A stretch of DNA of 64,000 nucleotides from Octopus sinensis (taxonomy: Eukaryota): contig NC_043020.1 of NCBI RefSeq assembly GCF_006345805.1, forward strand, positions 5,332,001 through 5,396,000. Direction: 5' to 3'. Position numbers and translations under genes: made by a program. Under the pieces are notes generated by a model, which was not told the DNA's origin, did no database searches, and worked only from the letters and a program-made list of their open reading frames with translations. The stretch's first letter is position 1; each line of letters starts with the position of its first letter. Below, one piece after another: positions 8,401-62,480 of this stretch.

Positions 8401-11400
8401 GTTCTGAGTTCAAATTCCGCCATGGAAAATGGATGTTAAATGATGATGACGTGCTGTCAACACAAGGAGACACATGCATTCACATAATCTTATTAAAAGG
8501 GGAAGAGCATGGGTGAATGATAATGATTTCCTTACCGATTTCTTGTCATGTTTTTCCACGACCGGAGGAGATGGATAAGAAATTCGGGAATGCGGGGCAG
8601 TGGTCTTGTTCTTTTTTGCAGGAACCGCTGAAGCGAAGCAGAACATGAAGAAATTATGCCAATCAATATCAAACAAAGGAAAATTAAAAGTGCACAAACA
8701 GCTCAAAACATTCACACACACATACATACATACAGGCCTAGACACATGCATACATACCAAGGCACACACAGCCATAGACACACACAAACACACACCCATA
8801 CAAAGACACACACACAAAGTTGTAAACTGTTTGTTATTGCAATTAAAAGCTCGAATTAAAAGCTCTGCATACCCGAGGCACCAGTAGGTTTCAGGGGTTA
8901 TCAAAAGAGAATGTGCAGTATTTGAGGGCCTTTCTCTTGGACAGCTTTACTGCACACCAGCTCCTCCCTTACCGATTTAAGGCATTGCTTACGGGATCAA
9001 CTGACTACTATCCAGTTTTAAGTCTTTCCCCTTAGGGGTCATCAGCACTGTTCAAATCATGGGGTCGTGCTGGTTTGACTTGCCACACACACCACCAGGC
9101 AACTGCTTCACACTCACACAGGTATTAATAATTGTTTCATTAGGCATGGCCGTGTGGTATGAAACTTGCTTCCCAACCACATTGTTCCAGGTTCAGTCCC
9201 ACTGCATTGCACCTTGGACAAAAGTCTTCTAGTATAGCCTCGGGTCAACCAAAGCCTTGCGAGTGGATTTGGTAGGTGGAAACTGAAAGAAGCCTGTTGT
9301 GTGTGTGTGGCTACTTGTGTCTATGTTTGTCTCCCACCACTGCCTGACAACTGGTATTGGTATGGCAGAAACGTTAGCACACCGGGCGAAATGCTTAGCC
9401 GTATTTCGTCTGCCGCTACGTTCTGAGTTCAAATTCCGCCGAGGTCAACTTTGCCTTTCATCCTTTCAGGGTCGATTAAATAAGTACCGGTTACGCACTG
9501 GGATCGATGTAATCGACTTAATTCATTTGTCTGTCCTTGTTCGTCCCCTCTGTGTTTAGCCCCTTGTGGGTAGTAAAGAAATAGGTATTGGTGTGTTTAA
9601 CCCCCTGTAACTTAGCAGTTTGGCAAAAAAGACAAACAGAATAAGTACCAGGCTTTAGAAAGAGGGAAAAAAATAAGTCCTGGTGTTGATTTATTCAACT
9701 AAAATAATTCTTCAAGGCAGCACTCCAGCATGGCCACAGTCTAATGATTGAACCAAGCCAAAGATAAAAGACCCAAGGTTATCAGTCTTTCATTGTTACC
9801 ATTTCGCAGCATCCCCCCCTGCACTTGTTTTCCTGGTCTTTTAATCATTCAGGGGATTCTACTTGTGCAACAAAAAAAACGTCTAAGAAATTGCAAACAA
9901 GTTCTGCAAACGTTAAAACCCAGAAATGTCACAGAGAAGAAATTCTTTACTTACTCAATTGCTTGACTTCTTCAAAAATGTTTTTCTCTGGCTGAGGCAA
10001 TGATGCTATCTTCATTGCTCGCGCCTTCTCCGTTTCCAAAGCTGCTTTCCTGAGGAGAAGAAAAAAACATTGGTTGTGAAAACGGAATGGTAATTGCAAA
10101 ACAAGAATTATTCACTTGGGTTTCCTAAAAAGTGGCAAGCTGCCAGAATTCTTAGGACGTGGAACTATCTCAAGTGGACTGTCTCTCCTCTCTTGGATAA
10201 CTATAAAAAAAAAGAAAAGACACACACACACAAAAAGCAGTGAATTCATCTATCATCATTTAACTTCTCTTTTTCCATGCTGGCATGGGTTGGATGAGTT
10301 GAAGAGACAAGCGAGAGGGCTCAGGTAAGTTCTTTGTTTGAATTAAGAAAACAGGTACGTGGTTTCCTTTATGTCAACATAGTATCGTATCATTACCAGC
10401 GTTGCCTTACTGGCACTTGTGCCAGTGACATGTGAAAAACATTTGATCAAGGTCGTTGCCAGTACCACTAGATGAACTCCTGTGTAGGTGGCATGTAAAA
10501 AACACCACTTGAGCGTGGCCGTTGCTAGTACTGCCTGACTGGCTCTTGTGCCGGTGGCACGTAAAAAGCACCCACTACACTCTCAGAATGGTTGGCGTTA
10601 GGAAGGGCATCCAGCTGTAGAAACTCTGCCAGATCAGATTGGAGCTTGGTGCAGCCATCTGGTTCACCAGCACCCAGTCAAATCGGCCAACCCATGCTAG
10701 CATGGAAAGCGGACGTTAAACGATGATGATGATTATTGCCTTCCATATAAACAAGAACCCCCCAACCGGTATGCTGTGGCACACTGGTGTGCCACAAGAG
10801 GAATACTATGTGTGACGCAGTGTAACCCGAATATAAAATTTTCCACTATACTTTTAGTTATATTTTTAGTTCAGGTGTGCTACCAAATTTTGGAAAGAAT
10901 GTAAGTGTACTGCATGTAAGAAAAAAAAAAAGAAGGTTGCCGAACACCGATGAGCTGGCAGAAACGTTAGCACGCTGGGCGAAGTGCGTAGCTGTATTTC
11001 ATCTGCCGTTACGTTCTGAGTTCAAATTTCACCGAGGTTGACTTTGCCTTCTATCCTTTCGGGGTCATTTAAATAAGTACCAATTACGCACTGGGATCAA
11101 TATAATCGACTTAATCCGTTTGTCTGTCCTTGTTTGACCCTTCTGTGTTTAGCCCCTTGTGGGCAATAAAAAAATAGGTATAAACTAGCAAGCGGTCAAT
11201 AGGATTGAAGGGAAATAATTCATGCCGAAAAGACTGTCAACACATCGCAATTTTGTCTATCTATCTATCTGCAATTATTCAAGCACGCAGTAAACAAAAG
11301 ATAGACAGTAGAGACACTTGAGTCAGTGATTAAAATCTATTTACCCGCCAACCTGCATCACCACCGGATAAGTTACCTCTACAACAAACGAAATTGATGA

Positions 11401-12223
11401 GACAACACTCGTAACATCAAAACAAAATGTTACGAGCACAATGGTGCAGTCGTCAGTCAAACCGTCCAACCCATGCTAGCATGGAAAGCGGATGTTAAAC
11501 AATGATGATGATGATGATTATCGCCTTCCATATAAACCAGAACCCAGCAACCGGTATGCTGTGGCACACTGCTGTGCCACGAGACGATGCTATGTGTGGC
11601 GCAGTGTAACCTGAATATAAATTTTTTCCGCTATACTTTTAGTTATATTTTTAGTTCAGGTGTGCCACCAAATTTTGAAAAGAATGTAAGTGTACTCCAG
11701 GTAAAAAAAAAAAAAAGAAAAAAAAAAGGTAAAAGCACCATCCGTTCGTGGCCGTTTGCCAGCTCCATCTGGCACCTGTGCGGGTGGCACGTAAAAAGCA
11801 CCCACTACACTCACGGAGTGGTTGGCGTTAGGATGGGCATCCAGCCGTAGAAACACTGCCAGATCAGACTGGGCCTGATGCAGCCTTCTGGCTTCACAGA
11901 CCACAGTTGAACCGTCCAACCCATGCTAGCATGGAAAGCGGACGCTAAATGGTGATGATGATGATGATGATGACAATAGTTATTCAGACAGTGAAGCCGT
12001 TTACCTAGAAATGATGTGTTTGTTTTCTCGCACGTATTTTGTGACCTTGTCTTCGTGCAGCTTCGACAGAGCCACATTGTGGCGGAGTTTAACATCCTTC
12101 TTGTAACGCTTCATCATGCGCCGTTTTGCAATATCAGGATCGTCCTAGAAGAGATCGTCAAGAAAAATATTTAATGATGTACAGAAATACAGATGTTTGG
12201 GTGTGTTAGTATATTTGTATACA

Positions 12224-12266
<43 letters not shown>

Positions 12267-15200
12267 TGATCATAATTTAATACCCACTTTCCTGAACTTG
12301 CCTGGGCCAGACAATTTTGTCGGGGAATATTTTCTATGGCCAGGTGCCCTTTCTATTGTTTATGTGTGTGTATGTATATAGATGTATGTATGTGTGTGTA
12401 TATTCTTTTACTCTTTTACTTGTTTCAGTCATTTGACTGCGGCCATGCTGGAGCACCACCTTTAGTCAAGCAAATCGACCCCAGGACTTATTCTTTGTAA
12501 GCCTAGTACTTATTCTATCGGTCTCTTTTGCAGAACTGCTAAGTTACGGGGACGTAAACACACCAGCATCGGTTGTCAAGTGATGTTAATGGGGGACAAA
12601 CACAGACACACAAACATATACACACATATATATATACACGACGGGCTTCTTTCAGTTTCTGTCTACTAAATCCACACACAAGGATTTGGTTGGCTCGAGG
12701 CTATAGTAGAAGACACTTGCCCAAGGTGCCATGCAGTGGGAATGAACCTGGAACCATATGGTTGGTAAGCAAGCTACTTACCACACAGCCACATGTATGC
12801 ATGTGTGTATATATATGTATGTATATTTTACAGCAAAGTCAGTTCTCTGGGAGTGTATGAAACCCAGATAATAGACACACACAAACACATACATACAAGC
12901 TGTATAGTTTATTTGCAATCTTCCAGGGAAACATGTCAGGCCATTGTGCTGTGTGTGTTTGAAAGACAAGGGGGAAAAATATCCCCATGCTTGAAAACAA
13001 ACGAGGATTGGCAACAGGAAGAGTAATTGGCCACAGGAAATCTCCCTCTATGAATCTTCTTGGATCTCTGACCCACCCAAGCACTGGAAAATGGATAAAA
13101 GAAAACTGGGTCACCATGGGAGGTTATTGAGATTCGTGAAGTGAAGATTTGCCACGGGTTTTGATGGATTTTAAGAGAATGTTTCGTCAACAGGGAAGAG
13201 GTGGGGGTTTAATAATAAAAAAAATAATAAAAGAAGGAACCAAATTAAATGGGGAAAAAAATGAACTTACTTTCTGCGCCGCCAACCGTTGGGCATGACC
13301 AATGTTGCTAATGCTTTGCCTGTAACATTCCGTTAGTTCTGCGATCTTCTCAGACTTTTCCTTGTTTAAATCCTCCTTGGAAACACAATAATAAAAAGAG
13401 ATGAGCAGGTTGTGGAAGACGCAATGAAAATTTTAGGGAAATAAAAATAAGAAAAAAGTGGAAATTTTACCGGTGAGTGTGTTACATTATAAGGCACAAA
13501 AAGAAAATGACTCTCCCCAGACACAACAGAATATGCTTCAACACACGAACTCGTATAAGGAATCTTGCAAACCAAATCCAAAATAAAAGGTTGTAGAAAA
13601 TTAATCTTTAAGCATTTAAACTGGCCATATCCAGTTTTATTCTACTTGTTTTATGTCTGAGCCAGCCAGATCAGGCTTCTCACACCTACCCTACAATGTC
13701 ATTCTCAAACTAAAATGCAGCAACAAAATCTTGAAGCTATGGGATAAACTCGAATTAATTTCAAACAATCATCATCAACATTTAACATCCATTTTCCATG
13801 CTAGCATGGGTTGGACGGTTCGACCGGGGTCTGGGAAGCCAGGAGGCTGCAGCAGGCACCAGTCTGATCTGGCAATGTTTCTACAGCTGGATGCCCTTCC
13901 TAATGCCAACCACTCCGTGAGTGTAGTGGGTGTATTTTACATGCCACCAGCACAGGTGCCAGGAGAGGCTGGTAATGGCCACAATCGGTTAGTGCTTTTT
14001 ACATGGCACGGAAGGCAGTCAAGGCGGTGCTGGCATCGGCCATGTTCGGATGGTGCTTTTTACGTGCCACCGGCACAGGTATCACAACTACAATTTCCAT
14101 TTGATTTTGATGTACTTGACTCAATGGTTCTCCTCAAGCACAGTGTGTATATATATATATCATCATCAACCTTTAACATCTGCTTTCCATGCTAGCTTGA
14201 GTTGAACGATTTAACTGAGGACTGGCGAACGAGATGGCTGCGCCAGGCTCCAATCTGATCTGATGTGGATGAATAAACATTATATTTAACTATTATATGC
14301 TTAATTTTAGTAATTGGTGCCAGTGCTGGTGGCACATAAAAAGCACCATTCGAGCGTGGCTGATGCCAGTACCGCCTGACTGGCTCTCATGTCGGTGGCA
14401 CGTAAAAAACACCCACTACACTCTCGGAGTGGTTGGCGTTAGGAATGGCATCCAGCTGTAGAAACTCTGCCAGATCAGACTGGAGACTGGTGTAGCCTCC
14501 TGGCTTGCCAGACCCCAGTCAAACCATCCAACCCATGCCAGCATGGGAAGCGGATGTTAAAGTACCATGATGATGATGATGAGTTCCTAATATTTTAATT
14601 ATAAAAATTCTAATAGGATTTTTTAAGACATCAAATGGCTTTGGGGATCCGGTAAAATAAAATATGATGAAAGGTATCCATGGGTAAAAAAAAAAAATGG
14701 TTTAGAATCGCTGATGAAGATGAAAAAAGGTAACTTACATTAATGGTATTGAATAATTTATTCAGTTCTTTGACTTTAGTTTTGGTTACAGCTTTTCTCA
14801 CTTTTGCTGCGTTGGTTTTGGAAATTTCCCGAACCTAAAATTCAACAATGCACATCCATTCCGTTTTAAAATTTCAAAAAAATAAGAAAAACAAAAAATG
14901 AATTGAAATCAAAAATGGAGTAAACCAACAATTCAAAAATGTTGATTTAGTCCCAAAGTTTTTCTGGGTAAATTTGAAGTTTAAACCTTTCATTACTGTA
15001 TTTATGTTGAGATGCTCTGTGTTTCATTCAATTATTTTAAAATATAACAAAGAATTTTGTAAAATAACTTAGTTATCATTAAACTAGTGTTAGGAACATA
15101 AATTGTGAACAAGGTTTGGTGGAAGATTTTAATTCAGAACTTATGAAAACAAGGCATTTGTACTGCAGAGCCAGAGGCGGTTTCAGCCAGGTTGGTATTA

Positions 15201-18158
15201 AAAGGGTTAAGAGAAGCTATTTAAGAAAGGAAGAATGATTTTATTGCTGTTGAGGTCATCTTCACCTTTCATATCTTCAACATCAATACTAATGGGACAT
15301 GTGGAAATTCTACAGAGTGAAAAAGATTAACCCTTTTGTTACCATATTTCTGTTGAGATGCTCTGTCTTTCTTTCAATTAATTTTAAATATAACAAAGAA
15401 TTTTGTAAAATAACTCAGTTATCATTCAGCTAATGTTAGGAATGTAAATTGTGAACAAGGTTTGGTGGAAGATTCTAATTCAGAACTTATGAAAACTAGA
15501 CATCTGTACTACAGAGCCAGAGGCGGTTTCAGCCAGGTTGGTATTAAAAGGGTTAAGAGAAGCTATTTAAGAAAGGAAGAATGATTTTATTGCTGTTGAG
15601 GTCATCTTCACCTTTCATATCTTCAACATCAATACTAATGGGACATGTGGAAATTCCACAGAGCAAAAAAGATTAACCCTTTTGTTACAATATTTCTGTT
15701 GAGATGCTCTGTGTTTCTTTCAATTAATTTTAAATAAAACAAAGAATTTAGTAAAATAACTCAGTTATCATTAAGCTAGTGTTAAGAACATAAATTGCGA
15801 CTAAGGTTTGGTGGAAGATTTTAATTCAAAACTTATGAAAACAAGACTTTTGTACTACAGAGACAGAGCCGGTTTCACCACACAATGAATGGAGTAAAGA
15901 TTGTTTGCCAACATAACATGGCAGTCCTGGTTTAGGACGAATGTTGCTGTAATTTAGCCCCAGGAGACATCGTCTCCAGCTGGCTATACGACATAATCTG
16001 TGTCCTTATATTTTCAAACAAGGGAATCTAGCACCCCCACTCGGCTCAAAACAATATCTGTGAAGACAGGGTGACAGTAACATTCGTCCTAAACCAGGAC
16101 TGCCATGTTATGTTGGCAAATAATCTCTACTCCAAAGTACTGTAGCTGAATATCTCACGTTGTGAGATTTACCACACAATGAAATGTCTGAATGTTTTCC
16201 TTACCTGCTGGAATCGAATCTTTCTTCGTCTCTCTCGTTCTTCTCTGGTAATTTTTTCTGTCTCATCAACAGTCAGTTGATAAGAAATGTCCAATTTAAT
16301 CACTGGAAATATAAAATTATATAACTTTAGCTGTCATCATTAACCCTTTTGTTACCATATTTATTTTGAGATGCTCTGTTTCTTTCAATTAATTTTAAAT
16401 ATAACACAAAAATTAGTAAAATAACTTAGTTATCATTCAGCTGGTGTTAGGAACATAAATTGTGACTAAAGTTTGGTGGAAGATTTTAATTCAAAACTTA
16501 TGAAAACAAGACATCTGTACTACAGAGCCAGAAGTGGTTTCAGCCAGGTTGGTAACGAAAGGGTTAAGAGAAGCTATTTAAGAAAGGAAGAATGATTTTA
16601 TTGCTGTTGAGGTCATCTTCACCTTTCATATCTTCAACATCAATACTAATGGGACATGTGGAAATTCCACAAAGCGAAAAAGATTAACCCTTTTGTTACC
16701 ATATTTCTGTTGAGATGCTCTGTCTTTCTTTCAATTAATTTTAAATATAACAAAGAATTTAGTAAAATAGCTTAGTTATCATTAAAACTAGTGTTAGGAA
16801 CATAAAAAGTGACTAAGCTTTGGTGGAAAATTTTAATTCAAAACTTGTGAAAACAAGACATTTGTACTCAGAGTCAGGACTGGTTTCAGCCGGGTTGGTA
16901 TCAAAAGGGTTAAGGCATTCTATCCATGACCCTCAAATTTATTTATTTTGTTTTCAGGCATAGTGTATTTACATTAGTATATCTAAATCACATGTAGGGA
17001 CATGGTATTTCATTAGGCAATCGTAATAAACTACAAAGTATAATAAACACCTTTGTAAGTGAATACCATGATCTACTGTGTTAGCAGTGCTACTACATCA
17101 CTTGTAAAGGTAGTCTCTCCAGTTTTCTATAGAAATTACGGTCAGCACAAATTTTGTTATAATTGTTTTGTATCCAAGACACTAGTCAATACCGGTCAAT
17201 TGTATAGGCAGTACTAGTACATCATTCGTTAAGCTTATCTCTACACGATCAGCGTTGGAAATTGTATACGTTCCCATCACCATTTGATGTGGTTAGTCAG
17301 ATCTGGATTGTATCAGAATGCTAAAAAAGTACCTGTTCAGATTCCAAATCCCTATTCCTTTATGTTTGATATATACATATACATATTTCTTTATTAACCA
17401 TAAGGGGCTAAACACAGAGGGGACAAACAAGGACAGACAAACGGATTAAGTCGATTACATTGACCCCAGTGCGTAACTGGTACTCAATTTATCGACCCCG
17501 AAAGGATGAAAGGCAAAGTCGACCTCGGTGGAATTTGAACTCGGAACGTAACGACAGACGAAATACGGCTATGCATTTCGCCTGGCGTGCTAACGTTTCT
17601 GCCAGCTCGCCGGCTTAATTATATATGTTATATATATACATATATAATTAGATAAAGATAGTTATGACTGGAGTTACAGCATCTTTTCAGATCTTGATGC
17701 CTGGTGGTTGTTAACTTCTCTATTGCTGGCGATAATTTCTGTACAAAATCCGGAGAGAAATTAGCATACACAATACATTACACAATACATGTATTTTTTC
17801 TGTTTTACGTACAGTGGGGTGAGATCTGATAGAGATTTGGCTGCTATTTCTAGCACATCGAATGAATGTAAACTTCCTATGTTAGGCACTACGCAAAATA
17901 ATGTTTTAGGGGTACTACACACTTAAAAACTATGGGAGATAGTCCAGGGCATTTCCAGGGACACCGTGGGAAAAAATCTGAAAAATCCCCGCAGGAGTGG
18001 CTGTGTGGTAAGTAGCTTGCTAACCAACCACATGGTTCCGGGTTCAGTCCCACTGCGTGGCATCTTGGGCAAGTGTCTTCTGCTATAGCCCTGGGCCGAC
18101 CAATGCCTTGTGAGTGGATTTGGTAGACGGAAACTGAAAGAAGCCTGTCGTATATATG

Positions 18159-26190: not shown

Positions 26191-26598
26191 CATTTAATGT
26201 TCATCTTCCATGCTGGCATGGGTTGGACAGTTTGTCAGCAGCTAGGGTAGTAAGCCGTTTGAAGTGGACAAAATGTTTGGTTGGCACGGTGGTCAAGATG
26301 AAAAGCAAAATTAAGCCACAGACAGGACGGCAGACAAACACACACACACACACACACAGGAAGTGATACAAACTTGACCAGTTGTCCACTAAAGGTCAAG
26401 GTGGTTTCATAATGACCTTGACCATCAGTCGACAACTGACTTGTTTGGTTTCTTTACTTTTTGTATCTTGTTCTGGGTGCTTTACCTGTTGTCCATACTT
26501 GATTGATGTCTGTGTGTGTGTGTCTATATATATATATAATTTATACACATGCACATAAATACACACGTACATATGATTCATATAAGTCTTAGATATAA

Positions 26599-30200: not shown

Positions 30201-33200
30201 AAGTCAAAGAATTTGTCTATGCAGCCCTTTCAAAATCATAACCCATCCCTTAGGTTGGGACCCACCGTGCTAAAGGGATCAAAATATAAATGATTCTGCT
30301 TTCGTTACTTAACCCTTTAGTGTTCGCATTATTCTGCCAAAATCAATGCTTCTTCATCCACATTGTTTTGAACTAATCAGGCATTATCTTGTAGCTATGA
30401 GATTTTGATGAGGTAACTGTTAATTTTTAAAACGACATTGTAGGGTTGGTGTGAGAGACCAGATCTGGCCAGTTTGAACATAAAACAGGTAGAATATTTT
30501 TGGCCGGATATGGACGGTTTAAATGCTAAAGGGTTAAAGGAAAAAGCAGTAATGTTACCCACCTGGCCTGTGCCATCCAAACCTCATCAAAATTCTCTTC
30601 CACTTCATCAATCTCCAACTGCATTTTGGTTTTGTGGTTCTTCAGTTTTTCGGTTTGATCCGAGATTATTTTCCCCAAAACAACTTTCTCGGCCTAACAA
30701 GAAACAAAAATAAAAGAATAGATGCATACAACATATCAACATTCCCTTTTAACATCCAATTTTTAAAAAATGGCCCTGGGTGGAGACAATTGGGTTGAAA
30801 GGGCCCAAGTGGTGGAAGTATAAGACCAGCCAGCCAGCTCTGAGGAGCAGGGGCCATTTATCATCATCATCATCATCGTTTAATGACCGTTCTCCATGCT
30901 AGCATGGGTTGGACAGTTCGACCAGGGATCTGGGAAGCCAGAAGGCTGCACCAGGCCCCAGTCTGATCTGGCAGAGTTTCTACAGCTGGATTCCCTTTCT
31001 AATGCCAGTATCATCTCTTGGGAAAGGTAGGAGAGTCCAGTTTGCTGGACATTGTTGTAGAACTGAAAACGAGGTAATTTCTACTCTTCTCCTCTGGAAG
31101 CCATCTGCTCGCGATACCAGAGGGCGCACACTCTCCTACCCTGATGTAATCTCCAGGGATACAGGCATCCAGCAACAGGACCTCCGTAATGCTATGATGG
31201 ACCGTAAAGTCTGGCGTAGCATGGTAAATTCCATTGTCTCGACCACAGTCGAACAATGATGATGATGATGGGTACTTTTTACATACCACTGGCAGAAGAG
31301 CCAGTCAAGCGGGCCTGGCATTGATCGCATTCAGATAGTGCTTTTTATGCGCCACCGGCACAAAAGGCCAGTCAGGGGGCAGGGTTATGGTCTACAACAG
31401 AGACCGAGATTTTAGGAAGTTTTTACCCACCTTTAATAACTCTAACTGTTCTTTCAGACTAGAATACTCTTTCATATATTCTTTATGCTTGACCAGATCT
31501 TGATGAAGTTGCTGGTTCTCATTCTGTAGAGTTTCCAGCATCTCGTAGTCGTTCTGCAATTAAGAAACAAGAAATATATGAAACCAACCCGGATTTAGAA
31601 ATTATTTTTATCTGGAAAGAAAAAAAAAAAAATTTTGTGCTTAGAATCTCGGACATTGTTTGGTGTCCGTGTCGGTGACATGTAAAAGCACCAAGCGATT
31701 GTGGCCGTTTGTCAGCCTGCTCTGGCCCCTGTGCCGGTGGCACGTAAAAAGCACCCACTACACTCACGGAGTGGTTGGCGTTAGGAAGGGCATCCAGCCG
31801 TAGAAACACTGCCAGATAAGACTAGAGCCTAGAGCAGCCTCCATGGCTTCCCAGATCCCCGGTCGAACCGTCCAACCCATGCTAGCATGGAAAACAGATG
31901 TTAAATGATGATGATGATGATGATGGTGATGATGATGTTTATGTAAACTACCCAGGTACTAACTAGGTGCAGGAGTGGCTGTGTGGTAAGTAGTTTGCTT
32001 ACCAACCACATGGTTCCGGGTTCAGTCCCACTGCGTGGCATCTTGGGCAAGTGTCTTCAGCTATAGCCTCGGGCCGACCAATGCCTTGTGAGTGGAATTG
32101 GCAGACGGAAACTGAAAGAATCCTGTCGTATATATGTATATATATATATATATATGTGTGTATATATGTTTGTGTGTCTGTGTTTGTCTCCCCACCATCG
32201 CTTGACAACCGATGCTGGTGTGTTTACGTCCCCGTCACTTAGCGGTTCGGCAAAAAGAGACCGATAGAATAAGTACTGGGCTTACAAAGAATAAGTCCCG
32301 GGGTCGATTTGCTCGATTAAAGGCGGTGCTCCAGCATGGCCACAGTCAAATGACTGAAACAAGTAAAAGAGTAAGAGGTACATTTGCCACTAACCTTCAT
32401 TTGATGTGCTTGGTCTTCTTGGTACTGTTCGAGTTCGGACTGCAGGTTGGTGATGGTGGCCAGTTTCGTTTGCAGATCGGTCCTCAACGTAATTACGGCT
32501 CTCTTGAGGAGGTCATCGGATTTACCATAGTCACTGAAACGAAACCGCAATTCGCAGACGATTGAATGCAATCGTTTTAAAATCCAAGGAGATTAGTTGT
32601 GGTATTAACGACAGGGAGGAGATGACAAGGGTCTGGCAGTTTGGATTTGGTGATGCTGGAGATGATCATTTGGCATGGCTGGGTATTGAACCTCTCTTTT
32701 GGCACTGGAGGCAAACACACATACACCCACACACACATGAAGTGAAACATATATAGTGGGAGAGAGAGAGGACATTCTATTAATTGAACACAATTGACAG
32801 AAATGCTTTTCCTCTCTTCATATTTTCTTATTGCTCTATAAATTAATGGAAAATAACTCTACCTTCACCCATTGAGTACACTTGGTAATGTAATTGCCAT
32901 GCAATGAAAAAACACCTGTGTATTAATAATTGGGTATTCTACCGGCAGTATATTGGATAAATATTATCCCTTAGTTGGTTGGATTCAAAACCTCTAACTT
33001 TCTTGGAATATATATATATATAAATATATATATATATGGTAAGCTTCTTTCAATTACTGTCAACGAAATAAATTACAAAGCTTTAGTACAAAGACTTTCC
33101 CAAGGTGCTGTGCAGTGAGATTGAACCTGAGACCACTTGGTTTGGCAGCAAATCTCTTAACCACACAGCCATGCCAGCAACCTAAACGCAATTCCATATC

Positions 33201-36200
33201 AATCCCAATAATATTAGGCGCAGGAGTGGCTGTGTGGTAAGTAGCTTGTTTACCAACCACATGGTTCCGGGTTCAGTCCCACTGCGTGGCACCTTGGGCA
33301 AGTGTCTTCTACTATAGCCTCGGGCCGACCAAAGCCTTGTGAGTGGATTTGGTAGACGGAAACTGAAAGAAGCCCGTCGTATAAATGTGTATGTGTGTGT
33401 GTGTTTGTCCCCCTAGCATTGCTTGACAACCGATGCTGGTGTGTTAATGTCCCTGTAACTTAGCGGTTCGGCAAAAGAGACCGATAGAATAAGTACTGGG
33501 CTTACAAAAGAATAAGTCCTGGGGTCGAGTTGCTTGATTAAAGGCATGGCCGCAGTCAAATGACTGAAACAAGTAAAAGAGTACTTACATCAGATCATCA
33601 TTCTGCTGCTTAATCAAAAGCCGAAATTTATAAATTTCGTGTTCGCCTTCCTGCCGCTGTTTCTCGGATTCTTCAAGATTCATTGTGAGGCTCTCGTTTG
33701 CAGCTTCCAAATTCTGAAATCCAAACGGTAATATCTAGAATATTATCAGAAATATTAAATTTCTAAATATCTCATAGAGATATGTGTGGTGGTGGAGCGA
33801 TAGAGTGGTTGTATACTTATTTCTTTATTGCCCACAAGGGGCTAAACATAGAGGGGACAAACAAGGACAGACAAAGGGATTAAGTCGAATACATCGACCC
33901 CAGTGCGAAACTGGTACTTGATTTATCGACCCCGAAAGGATGAAAGGCAAAGTCGACCTCGGCGGAATTTGAACTCAGAATGTAACGGCTGACGGAATAC
34001 CTCTCAGCATTTCGCCCGGCGTGCTAACGTTTCTGCCAGCTCGCCGCCTTATATACTGTCAACTTAACGTGACAGTCCCATCTTCAGCTAGCAGGCCTTG
34101 CTACTCTAGACTGATGATGGGCAAGACCCAGAAACATGCATGTCTCTAGATGCAGGCCTAGCTGTTGGGGGTGTTTGTCTCCCCTTCGTAAATATATAAG
34201 GACACAGGAAATGTGTCAAGGCCGACAGGAAGCGTCGATGTTTCCTAGGGCTAAATAGCGGTGGTGTAATTCCCTTTATGGGGACTGTCACGTTAAGTTG
34301 ACAGTATACAACCACTCTATAATATTATCCTTTCTACTAAAAGCACAAAGCCTGAAATTTTTGGGGAAGGGACCAGTTGGTTACATCGACCCCCAGTGTT
34401 TCACTGGTACTTAATTTATTGACCCCCGAAAGGATGAAAGGCAAAGTTGACCTCACCAGAATATGAACTCGGAATATAATACATCTGATATAATAAATAT
34501 GGGCATATGGCATAGTGGTTAAGAGCACGGGCTACTAACCCCAAGATTCCGAGTTCAATTCCAGGCAGTGACCTGAATAATAATGATCTCGAAAAATACC
34601 TTAGGAATGAGAACCCAATGGTAAGTAGCTTGCTTACCAACCACATGGTTCCAGGTTCATTCCCACTGCGCAGCACCTTGGGCATGTGTCTTCTATTATA
34701 GCCTCGGGCCAACCAAAGCCTTGTGAGTGGATTTGGTAGACGGAAACTGAAAGAAGCCCGTCGTATATATGTATATATGAGTGTATATGGTTGTGTGTGC
34801 ATGTGTTTGTGTTTGTCCACCCCACCCTCCAAACATCACTTGACAACCGATAGAATAAGTACCAGGCGAACAAAGAATAAGTTAGTTAGTTAGTTAGTTA
34901 TTTTTTGGCTCAAAAAGCAAAAAGCAAGGCCATGTAGGGGGACATGGAGTTATGTACAGGGTGGTGTTCATGTAAAGAGTTCAGGCCACTCGAGGTCAAG
35001 GGAGACTTTGAACCGAGCGGCCGTCGGCATCTTCACCATCTCGTCTGGCAGCTTATTCCACGGATCCGCAACCCGGACAGAGAAAGCCCCCTCTCCTTCG
35101 ATTGAGATGAAATCGTCACAGATAGAGCTTTTCGGAATGACCCCGCAGCCGACGCTCTGGAGCAGGAGTGAAGAACAGCTCTTTGGGGTCGATTTGCTTG
35201 ACTAAAGGCGGTGCTCCAGCATGGCCACAGTCAAATGACTGAAACAAGTAAAAGAGTATATGTGTGTGTGTGTCCCCGTCCAATACTGTCATCGCATGAT
35301 GGTTGTAAAGGAGCGTTATTCGTCTCCAATATTCCGTGGAAAGCATGTCCGGTCATGTGGAAAATATTACCTTGTTTGGAAACAGGTGGGGGTTGGGTGA
35401 CAGGAGCGGCATCCTGTTGTTATCAAAGTAAGTTTAAAGGAAGATCTACCATTATGAAGGAGGAGGAGGAGGTGGTGGTGGTCATTATAGGAAGCAAAGT
35501 GATTTTTACCTCTCGTTTCCTTTGTAGAACTTTGCATTCAGATTCCATGGATTCAAATTGTCCCTGGAGGATGTCTTTTTCCTCTTGGACAGCTTTCAAT
35601 TGCTTCTCACATTCCTGTGGAAAATAATAATATCAAAATAACAATAATTATAGTAAGAATGGTTTCAAAGTTATTTTACTAAATTTTTGGTTAAATCTAA
35701 ATTAATTGAAAGAAACACAGAACATCTGAAAATAAATACGGTAACGAAAGGGTTAATCAATTTCATTGACCCTAGTACTTGACTTGTACTCTAATTTATT
35801 ACTGACCCTGGAAAGATAAAAGGGAGGACGTTACCTTTAGCCTTTCTGTAAGCTGCTGGATTCGCTGGTTCTTCTCGTCGTCCTGTCCATCTGCAGATTT
35901 GCTGCGTTTCTCCATGCTGTGCATCTTGCGCAAGAATGTTTTATGCAGCCGCTCATGTTCGGTTCTTAGAAGAGCTGCCTGGAATGGTAAAAAGCAAAGC
36001 AAAAACTCACTGAATAAATCAAAGAATGGTGAAGAACTGAATAATTTATCATCATCATCCTCATCATCGTTTAACGTCTGCTTTCCATGCTAGAAACCAG
36101 ACCAAATCAGACTGGAGACTGGTGCAGACCCTCAGCTTATCAGCTCTGGTCAAACTGTCTAACCAATGGAAAATGGACACTGATGATGACAGTGATGATT

Positions 36201-37039: not shown

Positions 37040-37238
37040 AATCCAAACATGAAAACACGATAACGTGAGGACGTGGAACAAATATAGTATTATTGAATGC
37101 TCAGGAAGGAAGGGAAGAAGGAGGGTTTAACGTTTCGAGCACAGCTCTTTGTCAGAAACATAGGAAAAGGAAAAATCTAAAGAAGAGAAGACAGACGAAA
37201 AAAATTTCGCCAACAGTACACATGCAGTCACATTTTGA

Positions 37239-37275
<37 letters not shown>

Positions 37276-39260
37276 AACATATAATGGGCTTCTTTCAGTT
37301 TCCACCTACAAAATCCAGTCTCAAGACAGGTCAGTCTGTGGCTAAGTATGCATAAGGTGCCATGCAATGTAATTGAACCTGAACTCACAGGATTCGTAAG
37401 TAAACTTAAAGAATAAGGCTTTGAAAGTCTGCGACTGACCTTTTTGGAATTCTCTTCAAGAGTTATTTTCTGTTGCTGACATTCCTTTGTCTTCTTCTCA
37501 AAATGTTTATAAACTTTCTTGACTTGCTGTTTCAAGTCGGTCTCGCGGTTCTTAACAAGAATATCGATATGTTGAACCAATTCTTGTAATTCTTGCTCAC
37601 AGGATCTCATCAAAACGCCATCAACTGGGAGTCTGAAGAGGAACAGAGGTGAAAGGGAGAAACATAAAAAATTGAGTTTACCATATGAAACCCAAATGTA
37701 GAAACCTTATTAATCATGTTTATAATAGTTTATACTAGTTGGAGACATCATCATCATCGTTTAATGTCTGTTTTCCATGCTAGCATGGGTTGGACAATTT
37801 TGACTGAGGACTGGTGAACCAGATGGCTGCACCAGGTTCCAATCTTGATCTGGTAGAGTTTCTACAGTTGGATGCCCTTCCTAATGCCAAACACTCTGAG
37901 AGTATAGTGGGTGCTTTTTATGTGCCACCGGCTCGGGGGCCAGTCAGGCGGTACTGGCACATTCCTAATATTTAATATTTTGCATATTGCGGAAGAATAA
38001 CCAATTTATTTAGGTGGGATGGGGGGCTCTGGAGAGGGTTTCAGAGAGTAGCATCCCTGGCGGTGAGCTGGCAGAATCGATAGCACACCAGGCGAAATGC
38101 TTAATGGTATTTCGTCTGCCGCTACATTCTGAGTTCAAATTCTGCCAAGGTCGACTTTGCCTTTCATCCTTTCAGGCTCGATAAATTAAGTACCAGTTAC
38201 GCACTGGGGTCAATGTAATTGACATAATCCATTTGTCTGTCTTTGTTTGTCCCCTCTGTGTTTAGCCCCTTGTGGGCAGTAAAGAGATAGGTATTTCATC
38301 AATCGTTACGTTCTGAGTTCAATTTCTGCCGAGGTCGACTTTGCCTTTCATCCTTCCGGGGTTGATTAAACAAGTACCAATTATGCAGTGGGGTCGATGT
38401 AATTGACTTAATCTGTTTGTCTGTCCTTGTTTGTCCGCTCTGTGTATAGGCCTTTGTGGGCAGCAAAGAAATGGGAGTAGCATCCCTGCCCTCCTGAGCT
38501 AGTTTTCTACCACATTTCTTAAAAATTGTGGTAGAGGCCTTGGTCTTAGGACCACTCATGTCTAGAAACTGAGGTTGGGAGTAAACAAGGGCATGCTCCC
38601 TGTAGAAAACCCAGCTCCAAAAAAGCCTCATGATAACAAAGGAGAATGGGCCCCAACCAGCCCAACGGTTGGGGTGGGCTGCACCTACTTACCTCAGTTG
38701 CTATGGCATTGAGGTAGATCCAGCCACCCCCATTAACGGAGACAAAACCCAGATTTAAGACACTCGTCTAAAGCACAGTTTTTTCATGAAAAAAGCACCC
38801 ACTACACTCACGGAGTGGTTGGCGTTAGGAAGGGCATTCAGCCGTAGAAACACTGCCAGATCTGACTGGACCTGATGAAGCCTTCCGGCTTCCCAGACCC
38901 CAGTTGAACCGTCCAACCCATGCTAGCATGGAAAACGGACGCTAAATGATGATGATTCCCCAATTTACTATATTGCATCCGTGGAGCCCCAGATTCTATA
39001 TGGACCCTGGTTGAGAACCCCTGATTTAGATGATCTATCATGTGAAGTCTGGCTGCTGACCGGCCAATAACAAACATGTCATGGTTTTAACTTTGTAATT
39101 CGACAGTGCAGGTTCAAGTCTCAGTACGTCTTGGTCTCTTATTATTTATTCAATAAAGTTGTGCAGTTTAAAACAATACAAATGTCCACTAAATGACTTA
39201 CATGTTTTGATTTTCCAAATCTTTCCACAGATTTTGCGGGGATGCATCGTTATCGGTCAT
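27078..39260 (-). CDS. CEP63: CEP63/DEUP1 (CCDC67) family centriolar coiled-coil protein, 545 aa, complete
   Basis: Exons 39202-39260, 37440-37632, 36536-36631, 35835-35978, 35510-35614, 33589-33713, 32395-32533, 31431-31553, 30563-30693, 29051-29136, 28268-28557, 27078-27224 sum to 1638 nt in one frame. N-terminal SCEQELQELVQHIDILV matches the family motif SCEAELQELMKQIDIMV; C-terminal EFLHKEQ...NTEGVIQRY matches the family end. Confidence 0.88.
28268..28557 (-). CDS. CEP63: CEP63 acidic exon ETEDKEEQDGDDDEEEEE...NDSV
   Basis: tcccag / gtaagt, 290 nt, phase 1-0. Confidence 0.85.
29051..29136 (-). CDS. CEP63: CEP63 exon DVDEETAKVEL...EEFYQ
   Basis: ttacag / gtaaga, 86 nt, phase 2-1. Confidence 0.82.
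30309..30537. mobile_element. piggyBac-type MITE family 2
   Basis: TTAA|CCCTTTAG...CTAAAGGG|TTAA; partial copies at 36646-36750 and 13603-13765. Confidence 0.78.
30563..30693 (-). CDS. CEP63: CEP63 exon AEKVVLGKII...WMAQA
   Basis: tgttag / gtgggt, 131 nt, phase 0-2. Confidence 0.82.
31010..31270 (+). mobile_element. RTE LINE 3' fragment nested in family C element
   Basis: RRVQFAGHCCR...LLLWKP...RGRTLSYPD...AMMDRKVWR then (GAT)n. Confidence 0.8.
31431..31553 (-). CDS. CEP63: CEP63 exon NDYEMLETLQNEN...LELLK
   Basis: ttgcag / gtgggt, 123 nt, phase 0-0. Confidence 0.82.
31967..32374 (+). mobile_element. SINE family A, full length
   Basis: Collinear with other copies. Confidence 0.9.
32395..32533 (-). 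CDS. CEP63: CEP63 exon DYGKSDDLLKRA...HQMK
   Basis: tttcag / gttagt, 139 nt, phase 2-0. Confidence 0.85.
33216..33583 (+). mobile_element. SINE family A abutting a CEP63 splice donor
   Basis: Collinear; tail aagtaaaagagta runs into cttac. Confidence 0.9.
33589..33713 (-). CDS. CEP63: CEP63 exon NLEAANESL...QNDDL
   Basis: tttcag / gtaagt, 125 nt, phase 0-2. Confidence 0.85.
33800..34320. mobile_element. MITE with ~41 bp TIRs; left TIR split by a SINE
   Basis: atagagtggttgtatac[SINE]tgtcaacttaacgtgacagtccca ... tgggactgtcacgttaagttgacagtatacaaccactctat; partial copy 57677-57832. Confidence 0.8.
34882..35180 (-). mobile_element. CR1-type LINE 3' end
   Basis: RLRGHSEKL...WNKLP; (ctaa)n tail; same family as 54085-54395. 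Confidence 0.8.
35510..35614 (-). CDS. CEP63: CEP63 exon ECEKQLKAVQ...RKRE
   Basis: ccacag / gtaaaa, 105 nt, phase 0-0. Confidence 0.85.
35835..35978 (-). CDS. CEP63: CEP63 exon AALLRTEHERL...ERLK
   Basis: ttccag / gtaacg, 144 nt, phase 0-0. Confidence 0.87.
36536..36631 (-). CDS. CEP63: CEP63 exon ILALQSQVEWL...LKSK
   Basis: tgacag / gtaaac, 96 nt, phase 0-0. Confidence 0.87.
37125..37159 (-). ncRNA. Degenerate minimal hammerhead motif in pLTR-like fragment (37037-37240)
   Basis: gttt-CTGACAA-a gagc tgt gctc-GAAACGTT-aaac; G8 mutated. Confidence 0.55.
37440..37632 (-). CDS. CEP63: CEP63 exon LPVDGVLMRSCEQELQELVQHIDILV...NSKK
   Basis: cttcag / gtcagt, 193 nt, phase 2-0; family signature motif. 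Confidence 0.92.
38059..38475 (+). mobile_element. Tandem dimer of SINE family B
   Basis: Unit repeats after aaagagataggtatttc (about 38290). Confidence 0.85.
39202..39260 (-). CDS. CEP63: CEP63 first coding exon MTDNDASPQNLWKDLENQN(I)
   Basis: AAACATG start, gtaagt donor, phase 2 fits next exon; acceptor at about 39318. Confidence 0.75.
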
Positions 39261-41841: not shown

Positions 41842-43500
41842 AGAGAGAGGAGAGAGAGAGAGAGGTGTAGGAGTGGGTGTGTGGCAAGTAGCTTGCTTAC
41901 CAACCACATGATTCCGGGTTCAGTCCCACTGCGTGGCACCTTGGGCAGTGTCTTCTACTATAGCCTTGGGCCGACCAAAGCCTTGTGAGTGGATTTGGTA
42001 GACAGAAACTGAAAGAAGCCCATCGTATATATGTATGTATATATATATACATATGTGTGTGTGTGTGTACATGTCTCTGTTTGTCCCCTGCTACTGCTTG
42101 ATAACCGGTGTTGGTGTGTTTACATCTCCATAGCAGTTCAACAAAAACAAACAGAATAGTACCATGCTAAAATAACAAAAAAAAAAACCCCCCAGAAAAC
42201 AAAACAAAAGTACTGGGGTTGACTGAATCGACTAAAAACTCTTCAAGGTGTGGTGCCCCAGCATGGGCACAGTGTAATATTTGAGACAAGTAAGAGAAAA
42301 AAACACAAGTAAAAGAAACAACAAAATAACATGAAAACAAAGGAAAAAAAATGCCACGAGAGATACCTTCGGTAATATTACTCAAAGAAGACAGAGATGT
42401 CCAAAGATTGGTAAGAATTAATTAAGAATCCATCGTTGCAACCATGTTTAATCCATTCCACAGGTAAAAAAAAAATTAATAAAAAGGGGAAAAAAGACAG
42501 ACACTTAAAAAGCCCCAGAAATCCTGAATATGATTATTAAAAGCTATTTCTCAACAAACGGCGGTGATAACAGTATCACCTGTGTGTTTTAATTAATACA
42601 GTATCATATCACCATGGATACAGACTCCACCGCTGTCGCCAGCTCCCTCCCCCCACCTCCAACCACTTCTTCTTCAATTACAACAAGAATGCATTCCCTA
42701 ATTTATTATTAGAGTAAATTTCTGTGTGTGTGTGTGTGTGTGTGGTTCTTCTGCTTGCTTGTCTGTCTCTGGAAAAACGTGTTCTAACTTGACAAACGAC
42801 CCGACCCACGTCTCGTCTCGTGGAGCGAGTGTGTGCACGGGGGGGTGGGGTGGATGAAGTGGGGATTGTGAATGTGGGTCAGGTGGGTATTGCTCGGTGG
42901 TGGGTGGGTGGTGGTGGAGGTGGAGGAGGAGAAGAATTTAAAGATGTGAGTCTTTTGTTTTATGTTGTCCTATTCTTTCATGATCATTTTTACTTATATA
43001 TATATGTATATATATATATATCGGCGTAGGAGTGGCTGTGTGGTAAGTAGCTTGATTACTAACCATGTGGTTCTGGGTTCAGTCCCACTGCGTGGCACCT
43101 TGGGCAAGTGTTTCCTATAGTCTCAGGCCGACCAAAGCCTTGTGAGTGGATTTTGTAGATGGAAACTGTTATTCTTTGTAAGCCTAGTACTTATTCTATT
43201 GGTCTCTTTTGCCGAACCGCTAAGTAACGGGGACATAAACACACCAGCATCGGTTGTCAAGCAATGCTAGGGGGACAAACACAGACACACAAACATATAC
43301 ACGAACACTTATATATATATATATATATATACATATATACGACAGGCTTCTTTCAGTTTCCGTCTACCATATCCACTCACAAAGCATTGGTTGGCCCGGG
43401 GCTATAGCAGAAGACACTTGCCCAAGATGCCACGCAGTGGTAGTGAACCCGGAACCATGTGGTTGGCTAGCAAGCTACTTACCACACAGCCACTCCTGCG

Positions 43501-43559
<59 letters not shown>

Positions 43560-43755
43560 GTGTAGGAGTGGGTGTGTGGCAAGTAGCTTGCTTACCAACC
43601 ACATGATTCCGGGTTCAGTCCCACTGCGTGGCACCTTGGGCAGGTGTCTTCTACTATAGCCTTGGGCCGACCAAAGCCTTGTGAGTGGATTTGGTAGACA
43701 GAAACTGAAAGAAGCCCATCGTATATATGTATGTATATATATATACATATGTATG
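40342..43755. repeat. Tandem duplication, ~1.7 kb unit
   Basis: 40342-42052 near-identical to 42053-43755. Confidence 0.92.
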
Positions 43756-43968
43756 TGTGTGTGTATATGTTTGTGTTTGTCCCCCCAACATCGCTTGACA
43801 ACCGATGCTGGTGTGTTTATGCCCCCTGTAACTTAGCAGTTCGGTAAAAGAGATTGATAGAGTAAGTTCTAGGGTTACAAAGAATAAGTCCTGGGGTCGA
43901 TTTGATTCGACTAAAGGCGGAGCTCCAGCATGGCCACAGTCAAATGACTGAAACAAGTAAAAGAGATA
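43558..43968 (+). mobile_element. SINE family A, full length
   Basis: Collinear; head-to-head with minus copy 43168-43500. Confidence 0.9.
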
Positions 43969-45429: not shown

Positions 45430-57434
<12,005 letters not shown>

Positions 57435-57867
57435 ACATTCTGCTTAATTTATCAACACCTCTGTTTGTCTTGTTGTGTGTATATATGTGTATATATTTAT
57501 GTGTATATATATATACTTTATTTAAAGCAGCAGAAACGGGAAACTCAGAGTAACAGGTTTTTTCTCTTTGAATTTTCTGCTGCTTTAAATAAAGCATATT
57601 ACTCTACCACTGGTATTTGAGTACTCTTTTTTCCACCTTGTTTCACATTTATGTGTTTACTCCGGTATATATATATATAGAATGGTTGTATACAGTCAAT
57701 CTAACGTGAACGTGACAGTAGGGCGGTACACCACTGCTGTTTAGCCCTAGGAAGCATCGACGCCTCCTGATGGCTTTGACACATTTTTCTTGTGACCTTA
57801 TATACATTTACGAAGGGGAGATAAATATCCCCAGGTAAAATAATATGTGACAATTATTCGGTGGCCA

Positions 57868-60499: not shown

Positions 60500-60820
60500 A
60501 GAATTAAAAAAACAAACAAAAAAAAACAACAAAAGACGAAGACAGGTGGTGTAGACAACAAATAAATGCATTAGTATAATGCTCGGGAAGTGAAAAAGTC
60601 TTTAATATTTCGAGCCTAAGCTCTTCCACAGAAAGAAACAAGGGGAGAAAATAAAGAATGTGTAGTGGCTAGCAATCTATATATACATATATATATGCAC
60701 ACACATACATAGAGACATAGATAGATAAACATTTCTTATAGATGTGTGTGTATGTATATTTATATGTATATAATATGCAATTGTGTATGTGTATGTATAT
60801 ATATATGTGTGTGTGTATAT

Positions 60821-61086
60821 ATATAATAGAAAAAATAAGGTATTCAGAGATCTGGATGGTTGTACATATACAAATATTTATTAACGTGACACATGTTTTT
60901 ACAAATCACGTATCAGCGCTTTCATCTACTCTAATAGATTCTTCAGATTTTCTTCAAAATCTGAAGAATCTATTAGAGTAGATGAAAGCGCTTATACATG
61001 ATTTGTAAAAACATGTGATGTTTATAAATATTTGTATATGTACAACCATCCAGATATCTGAATACCTTATTTTTTTCTAATATATA
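60821..61086. repeat. Fold-back (palindromic) element with hammerhead core in each arm
   Basis: About 130 bp arms, 4-nt loop at 60952-60955; CTGAAGA atcta ttagag tagat GAAAGCGCT. Confidence 0.85.
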
Positions 61087-61127
61087 ATATCTGTACATCA
61101 CTTCCAAACCTTCTAATATATATATAT

Positions 61128-61162
<35 letters not shown>

Positions 61163-61748
61163 GACACAGACTAAATCACAGTATGTTGTATACTATATGT
61201 GCTCCAAATCTCATTGGTGAGTGGTGTGTCTTTTTTCTATCACAATCAGGTATCATATATATATATATATGATGTAAATAATAAACCATTATTGATTAAG
61301 ATTTAAATATTACATTATGCAATAAACATCAGATCTATACATGCATATATATATATATATACACACACACACAAGTCCATTTATAAAACTTTAAATTATG
61401 CTTTTTGTTTCAACATACATTTCTCTTTTCATGCTAGGAATATATATATATATGAGATATTGTGATTCGGGGTCAAGTAGTTTTACAGTTCGAAGTCCCA
61501 GTCCTATGTCATTAATTAAGGGAGCTGAGAGAAGTTGAATGTCTGGTTTGTATCTGAGCAGCATAACAACATTACTGTAATAGAAAGGTCGAACTCCTGA
61601 GCATATTACTGGTATCTCCAAGGTGGTAACTTTACTGTGGCTGGTATTGGTACCTTCTTAAATGATGGTATTTCATGACTATCACATATTCCGAACTCAG
61701 GAGAACAACATGTGTGTTTGAGTATATACACACATATACACACACATT

Positions 61749-61931
61749 TTATAAGCTTAAAGCTTGTAAGCAATCCCCGTGTAATGACTAAAGAAAATAG
61801 CCTAATAATGAAATATATAAACCCTTGATGGCAAAAATACTTTTTCTGTCAAGGGCTTATATGCCCCAATATTAGGGGCTATTTTCTTTAATCCTTACAC
61901 AGTGATTGCTCATAAACTTTAAGCTTATAAA
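61749..61931. repeat. Fold-back element
   Basis: Imperfect ~90 bp arms ttataagcttaaag...ctttaagcttataa. Confidence 0.8.
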
Positions 61932-61995
61932 ATATTATTATTAATTACAGAATTGCAAAAAAATTGACACTGCTTACCAAAAAACCACAGCATAT

Positions 61996-62238
61996 ATATA
62001 TATGAAATACAAAATGGGACAAGAATGCAAAACATCCGGACAACTAGGTGATACAAAAAGGGACAACAAAACATCCAGATAGACGATACAAAGAAAGTAA
62101 GGATGGGTCATTCTGAGTTTTCTACCCGTCCTTGTTTTTTTGTATCATCTATCTGGATGTTTTGTTGTCCCTTTTTTGTTTCACCTAGTTGTCCAGATGT
62201 TTTACGTTCTTGTCCCATTTTGTATTTCATATATATAT
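61996..62238. repeat. Fold-back element in (TA)n
   Basis: About 110 bp arms atgaaatacaaaatgggacaagaa / ttcttgtcccattttgtatttcat. Confidence 0.88.
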
Positions 62239-62329: not shown

Positions 62330-62480
62330 TGTATATATTTAATTAATATTTAGCAGAATTAACAGAGTAACTCGTGGGTCGAGAGTTTTGTGAATTGGCA
62401 CTCTGATGAGTGCCAATGCATGAAACCTTCAGACCTTGAGTCACTCTGTTGCATCTGGTAAATATTAACAAACATATATA
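62330..62480. repeat. Fold-back element centred on CTGATGA hammerhead core
   Basis: ttggcactc-tgat-gagtgccaa axis; aacagagt / actctgtt and aatattt / aaatatt outer arms. Confidence 0.75.

Follow-up and report, generated by a model that had tools for sequence, protein, structure and literature searches.

Penelope-like elements (PLEs) and the hammerhead repeats tied to them are the closest described systems to the locus reported here. For Penelope elements, a head-to-head polarity is described as the most frequent arrangement, and self-priming is given as the explanation (Arkhipova 2013, PMC3846280). The paper on Naiad elements describes an inverted, 5'-truncated copy, a one-ended tail of 30-40 bp, and insertion into (TA)n or (CA)n, which masks target duplications (Craig 2021, 10.1101/2021.04.23.441226). 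A curation guide likewise counts inverted pLTRs and 3' extensions as PLE traits. Minimal hammerheads of metazoans occur as opposite-strand pairs 100-700 bp apart, which have been read as truncated PLEs (Cervera and de la Pena 2014, PMC4209133). An insertion mechanism has been described from in vitro work on Poseidon of Anolis carolinensis, in which the reading frame starts at stem II of the hammerhead and reverse transcription starts 111-118 bases into the frame (Frangieh 2024, PMC11167929). The Poseidon tail lies between two such start sites; insertion involves cutting and extension of both strands of the target and does not require the ribozyme to cleave (PMC11167929). Finally, a recent preprint on retrozymes links hammerhead repeats without coding capacity to pLTRs (Li, Clavereau, Pollet 2026, 10.64898/2026.07.22.740005).

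Here, we analyzed a hairpin-shaped insertion of 290 bases in a 64-kb window (the whole stretch of Octopus sinensis DNA under study). In it, the end of a common repeat is present twice, in mirror orientation, and both copies contain a hammerhead core. The reading that we favor, with a probability of roughly 0.7, is that one truncated PLE insertion left a head-to-head pair of the last ~125 bases of a hammerhead repeat, together with a 35-base tail, in (TA)n. SINE-like repeats and microsatellites are abundant in the window. COMM-domain exons at 56934-57434 (+ strand), identified with Pfam, lie about 3.4 kb upstream of the element, and a CEP63-like exon at 37155-37706 (- strand) scores just below the Pfam cut-off.

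Structure of the hairpin element

The inverted arm (about 60826-60951, - strand) is a tail-less copy of the 3' end of the repeat and points away from the axis, as delimited by the arm alignment and by family depth along the whole arm in four sequencing runs. The direct arm (60956-61079, + strand, with the mirror match reaching about 61082) contains the same 3' end, 5'-truncated just upstream of the hammerhead core; it is supported by the arm alignment and by loose ends of related contigs at 60950/60957, which continue into non-palindromic parent sequence. Between the arms lies the 4-base loop CTTC (60952-60955). This loop falls in a 6-base insert, TCTTCA (60951-60956), that repeats 60940-60945 and, judging by the junction letters, breaks an otherwise perfect ATTTAAAT junction. 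Of 127 aligned columns, 121 are identical between the arms, and the alignment contains two gaps (2 bases and 1 base); the hairpin RNA has a folding energy of -172 kcal/mol (z -28.6), with equally good folds in 0 of 200 shuffles. The palindrome with a 4-nt loop that an initial annotation had reported is therefore confirmed, far beyond chance. A read artefact was rejected on account of the 6 differing sites and 2 gaps between the arms and of the occurrence of the family in other runs. The earlier view of an old element is supported. No second copy of the hairpin element is present within the 64-kb window.

The right arm passes into a one-sided tail of 35 bases (61080-61114, + strand) without a mirror on the left side. 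It is defined by family depth, and its ends, uncertain by a few bases, merge with TA runs. The tail had been overlooked initially, and the element reaches about 61114, past the 60821..61086 given then. The likely target is, by its sequence, a (TG)n/(TA)n microsatellite on the left flank (60780-60825) and a (TA)n microsatellite on the right (61115-61162). These TA-rich flanks on both sides agree with the insertion in (TA)n proposed before. No target-site duplication is readable at the element; microsatellite lies on both sides, with only a chance 4-mer repeat.

Hammerhead cores beside the axis

The motif CTGAAGA starts at 60961 on the + strand and at 60946 on the - strand, each time 5 bases off the loop, and the two cores are 15 bases apart. 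The right-arm core (60961-60993, + strand) matches a strict hammerhead descriptor and is composed of CTGAAGA, stem II, GAAA, a palindromic GCGC insert and T-T (in order after CTGAAGA: stem II with five Watson-Crick pairs and one G-U, GAAA, GCGC and T). The left-arm core (60914-60946, - strand) has a G at position 17 and matches only when G is allowed there. Strict-descriptor matches in the window are limited to the right-arm core at 60961 and one other motif (34111), compared to 0.02 matches by chance per shuffled 64-kb window (400 shuffles); among shuffled arms, 3 of 20,000 matched. Measured against these shuffles, the outward-reading cores on both strands noted initially are far beyond chance, and the axis indeed adjoins the core, as it does in an unrelated hairpin at 62343-62468.

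The full motif had been claimed for either strand, which holds for the right arm only, where AAGCGCTT is complete; on the left arm, G17 breaks the cleavage rule. Similarly, the 5' strand of stem I had been described as missing. This applies to its distal part, which is cut off, while two proximal pairs remain. The 3' strand of distal stem I, GATTTGT, is retained at 61000-61006 (+ strand), and its partner ACAAATC, which lies upstream of the axis in parent copies, is missing here. The core and stem II are in place, but with a stem I of only 2 bp, G17 on the left arm and a transcript predicted to form one duplex, the hairpin copy would fall short of an active type I hammerhead. From the sequence, the left-arm core is predicted to be unable to cleave owing to G17. 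For the copy as a whole, the loss of distal stem I and the long duplex into which any transcript would fold predict a dead ribozyme.

Measured from the axis, the cut site (after 60993) lies ~40 bases further out, and on both arms the sequence on either side of it has been retained. Cleavage therefore did not set the axis, and a cleavage-defined axis was ruled out; the earlier idea of a snap-back at the ribozyme stands as a matter of position only. A search against Rfam gave no gathering-level match in the window; around the element it listed 35 weak matches, none of them to a hammerhead family. The best of these, microRNA hairpin models, are generic hairpin matches far below thresholds.

Non-palindromic parent copies in public sequencing runs

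A run-index search with 21 words of 60821-61120 returned 20 runs from 14 studies and six organisms, none of which contained half of the words. Four of 24 listed runs (X1, X4, X9, and X24) were compared with the element at 80% likeness, yielding 266 contigs in X1, 628 in X4 and 14 in X9, as well as 146 RNA reads in X24. Of these, X1 and X4 are DNA-like runs, and the status of X9 as an RNA run is a guess.

At the axis, the loose ends of 8 X1, 9 X4 and 1 X9 contigs share one non-palindromic upstream consensus (agreement 0.78, 0.71), and in 4 of 8 X1 pieces among the matches listed, 52-274 unlike letters follow past the axis. The upstream consensus contains ACAAATC (one change in X9); its pairing with GATTTGT at 61000-61006 gives the parent a distal stem I of 7 bp. 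In addition, the consensus ends in ATTT and forms, with AAAT before the core, the 8-base palindrome ATTTAAAT in the parent. Since many copies run through the axis into non-palindromic sequence that completes stem I, the hairpin represents part of a longer repeat, truncated at its 5' end and inverted. Position 17 of the right-arm core is A in 89% of X4 depth.

The runs also bear on how the two arms arose. A mirrored letter at 60910/60997 is present on both arms and missing from 93-100% of family depth in X1 and X4, and four further mirrored sites common to both arms are rare in X4. As both arms have the same rare letters, they would stem from one template or have been made alike later by conversion; two independent insertions as the origin of the arms are ruled out by these letters. 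Regarding the tail, family depth over 61091-61110, which is not equal to copy number, amounts to 8,500-13,000 in X1 and 40,000-97,000 in X4. A single variant letter at 61102 is common to 50 X1 contigs, 53 X4 contigs and 70 X24 reads. Tail-less copies exist as well, with 6 and 8 X4 contigs exiting the arm at 61076 and 61086, respectively, into TA runs. The segment 61080-61114 is thus an optional one-sided extension of the family and, by analogy, would correspond to the one-sided tail of PLEs.

Fold-back copies can be traced in the same data. In one X4 contig, precisely the 6 letters at 60951 are missing, which gives a perfect fold-back at ATTTAAAT. A joint from 60883 to 61025 in X4 represents another fold-back of the family that is shorter, lacks the ribozyme and has a mid-arm axis. 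Depth at 60951 equals 2% (X1) and 4% (X4) of that in neighboring bins, figures that understate the fold-back share, given that assembly graphs collapse perfect palindromes. The axis is crossed by a depth of 98 in X1 and 497 in X4, 126 of the latter without the 6-base insert, and by 3 of 8 X9 pieces among the matches listed. These X9 pieces may be the same locus: they share the rare letters of the copy, and one loose end resembles the left flank.

Search for a coding partner

Non-palindromic copies with a full stem I, which the initial annotation had suggested looking for beside PLE reading frames, were recovered. No reverse transcriptase or GIY-YIG frame is linked to the family across the 30 letters of upstream parent sequence examined. 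Patterns of the core and of the outer arm had 0 matches each among metagenome, prokaryote and viral sequences, which is unsurprising for DNA from an animal. Pfam detected no PLE domain in 150 window frames, comprising 148 of the 265 filter-passing frames and 2 short frames near the element. A weak match to RVT_1 (reverse transcriptase fragment) at 54885-55166 (- strand) is below the cut-off and without a link to the family. The arms and tail contain no open frames, with stops in all three frames of both arms and no frame start; decay or a non-coding parent may explain this.

Other hairpins and hammerheads in the window

Among seven local non-SINE hairpins, a core lies within 15 bases of the axis in two, namely, the element itself and an older hairpin at 62343-62468. 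The latter has arms that are 73% alike and a 4-base loop that falls within CTGATGA (62403); a 4-bp stem II and GAAA come next. It matches the loose descriptor and not the strict one. This hairpin is unrelated to the 60826-61114 element, and a core at its axis is expected 0.0002 times by shuffling. The five remaining hairpins (62004-62228, 48230-48474, 61746-61933, 15890-16134, and 26379-26438) have no core near the axis, and several adjoin TA runs. These 2 of 7 hairpins, a small sample, support the initial idea of a preference of axes for the ribozyme. The 8-base palindrome at the axis of the parent is a possible snap-back hot spot.

The second strict-descriptor match is a complete type I hammerhead (core 34111) with a 6-bp stem I and a palindromic stem III. 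It is contained within a 257-base unit (34052-34308) that has perfect 28-base inverted ends and TA flanks. The unit could be a further end of PLE type whose inverted arm is very short, or else a miniature inverted-repeat transposable element (MITE) with a ribozyme. A one-ended copy is found at 57687-57833 (80%), with ~10 bases shared past the repeat on one side, and the hairpin at 15890-16134 is 70% like part of the unit. At 27499, CTGATGA with a stem and GAAA matches the loose descriptor only.

Comparison with PLEs and proposed origin

Insertions of endonuclease-bearing (EN+) PLEs (PMC3846280, 10.1101/2021.04.23.441226) share with the element the head-to-head inversion, a palindromic junction, a one-sided tail, a microsatellite target, an unreadable duplication and a hammerhead near the 3' end. 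They differ in that the arms of the hairpin are both cut at the same point, with nothing else left, and in that no coding frame is seen here. The likeness extends to details. The core lies 122 and 154 bases from the two ends, within the range of about 100-200 bases from the 3' end for a hammerhead in a PLE terminal repeat, and distal stem I is complete in parents. One end bears a tail of the 30-40 bp size class (61080-61114) that is optional, with tail-less copies present too, and the 5' truncation is combined with a head-to-head inverted copy, 3' ends outward, for which a second axis occurs mid-arm.

As for the ribozyme, the description of PLE minimal hammerheads in PMC4209133 agrees with the locus in the type I fold, the longer stem II, the short proximal stem I, the small palindromic stem III for dimer action and the opposite-strand pair. 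On the other hand, the cores of the hairpin are only 15 bases apart instead of 100-700 bp, there is no extra base before stem II, position 10.1-11.1 is A-U instead of the highly conserved G10.1-C11.1, and the parent of the hairpin has a 7-bp distal stem I (PMC4209133). Poseidon (PMC11167929) also has ends ~115-150 bases downstream of the hammerhead, two ends differing by a tail, and an AT-rich target. Stem II and the ends are separated by comparable distances, 115 (tail-less end) and 147 (tail end) bases here and 111-118 bases in the anole. In contrast to Poseidon, whose frame starts at stem II, all frames are closed at this locus.

Based on these parallels, the truncated PLE insertion could have proceeded as follows. 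A PLE endonuclease would nick AT-rich (TA)n DNA, as extrapolated from the anole PLE in vitro, and reverse transcription would begin inside the RNA at one of two sites, 115 or 147 bases downstream of the start of stem II. The two internal start sites would yield the tail-less and the tailed end. Copying would then halt just 5' of the core, presumably at the 8-base palindrome of the parent, and the inverted arm would be made from the same template, either by cDNA snap-back or by two-strand target priming followed by a head-to-head join. The junction would gain a 6-base templated insert, and the ribozyme would be a passenger.

Several observations count against this origin. No PLE reading frame is linked to the family in the sequence covered, no target-site duplication is readable, and position 10.1-11.1 departs from the conserved G-C. 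There is no frame start within the pLTR or tail, a point on which anole and rotifer elements differ, and the presence of a core at the axis in 2 of 7 local hairpins is not accounted for by random truncation. Formal membership of the PLEs awaits a link to a PLE reading frame; by analogy, the element likely behaves like a truncated, inverted PLE insertion. The initial annotation had proposed a new, undescribed class. This is not supported because head-to-head inverted ends, the tail, (TA)n targets and opposite-strand hammerhead pairs are already described for PLEs, and the family has non-palindromic parents with a full stem I and an optional tail. The literature consulted, largely open main texts, yielded nothing on an ORF-less class of PLE hairpins, on hammerhead-enriched axes or on the family of the hairpin, which may already stand in repeat databases.

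Several other origins were weighed against the truncated PLE insertion. The parent might be a non-autonomous hammerhead repeat (a non-LTR retrozyme or a non-coding PLE derivative) moved by PLE proteins, the hairpin being its truncated, inverted insertion by the same mechanism. The arm and tail have no reading frame, copy number is high in several organisms, and the literature describes retrozymes as non-autonomous, often monomeric derivatives of PLE pLTRs; they are likewise non-coding, with a type I hammerhead and kinship to PLE pLTRs (10.64898/2026.07.22.740005). However, retrozymes form head-to-tail tandems or monomers, whereas the window contains no tandem and a single head-to-head unit with a truncated ribozyme, and the preprint has no passage on inverted or palindromic copies, the word 'inverted' appearing only in a reference title (10.64898/2026.07.22.740005). 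The optional tail and the inversion, moreover, are described for PLE insertions, and we consider such a parent unlikely. It is quite unlikely that fold-back of PLE cDNA is focused on the 5' edge of the hammerhead, where the mini-palindrome or the ribozyme fold stops and turns the reverse transcriptase, with some ORF-less hairpins re-copied as units.

The initial annotation had gone further and seen in the fold-back unit a miniature retroelement without ORFs, which would be propagated in its entirety and have a fixed axis at the hammerhead. Asymmetric parent copies are common at the axis, another fold-back uses a different axis (the X4 joint of 60883 to 61025), and the transcript, being one long duplex, would be a poor template. 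Some depth does cross the axis (X1 98, X4 497), as do 3 of 8 listed X9 pieces, but the latter may be the same locus, as judged from the rare letters of the copy and the flank; a second family also has CTGATGA in its axis loop (62403). On balance, copying as a unit is very unlikely. A palindromic MITE, i.e., a derivative of a DNA transposon, with a chance hammerhead-like motif would fit the size, the AT richness and the TA-rich flanks, and frogs have palindromic DNA repeats of ~200 bp. The ends are asymmetric, however, with a tail on one side only, and the hammerhead motif is far beyond chance. Structure varies among copies by truncation, no target duplication of superfamily type is readable, and family copies truncated towards the axis continue into non-palindromic sequence with a completed ribozyme. 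The family copies in public runs largely refute a MITE, which we regard as extremely improbable, and the one-sided tail and non-palindromic parents make the retro-derived nature asserted initially likely.

Possible RNA editing and significance

In X9, compared to 60821-61120, A>G or T>C accounts for 21 of 26 transition sites, versus 22 of 47 in the DNA-like X1 and X4 (Fisher p 0.006; the sites are not independent); in X24, the count is 28 of 42 (p 0.09). T>C changes at 60920, 60921 and 60932 are present in X9 and absent from X1 and X4. The T>C excess in X9, which is only guessed to be RNA, hints at A-to-I editing of the hairpin transcribed from the minus strand. Octopus and frog are reported to have the most long double-stranded loci and hyper-editing (PMC5625713). 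In these animals, edited double-stranded RNA may derive in large part from such hairpins, for which the present locus offers a hint only.

The hairpin provides an example of a known insertion pattern and a caution for repeat annotation, as it looks like a MITE and is likely of retro origin. If axes were enriched at hammerhead cores genome-wide, this would bear on the head-to-head inversion of PLEs and on the role of their ribozyme, both of them open questions (PMC3846280, PMC11167929). If focused fold-back and re-copying were true, the result would be a MITE-mimicking retro-family that seeds the genome with perfect double-stranded RNA for A-to-I editing. Within the window, a common SINE-like repeat also forms head-to-head pairs, separated by a TA/GA run or a short spacer (43281-43780 and 33080-33318), which are further double-stranded RNA substrates.
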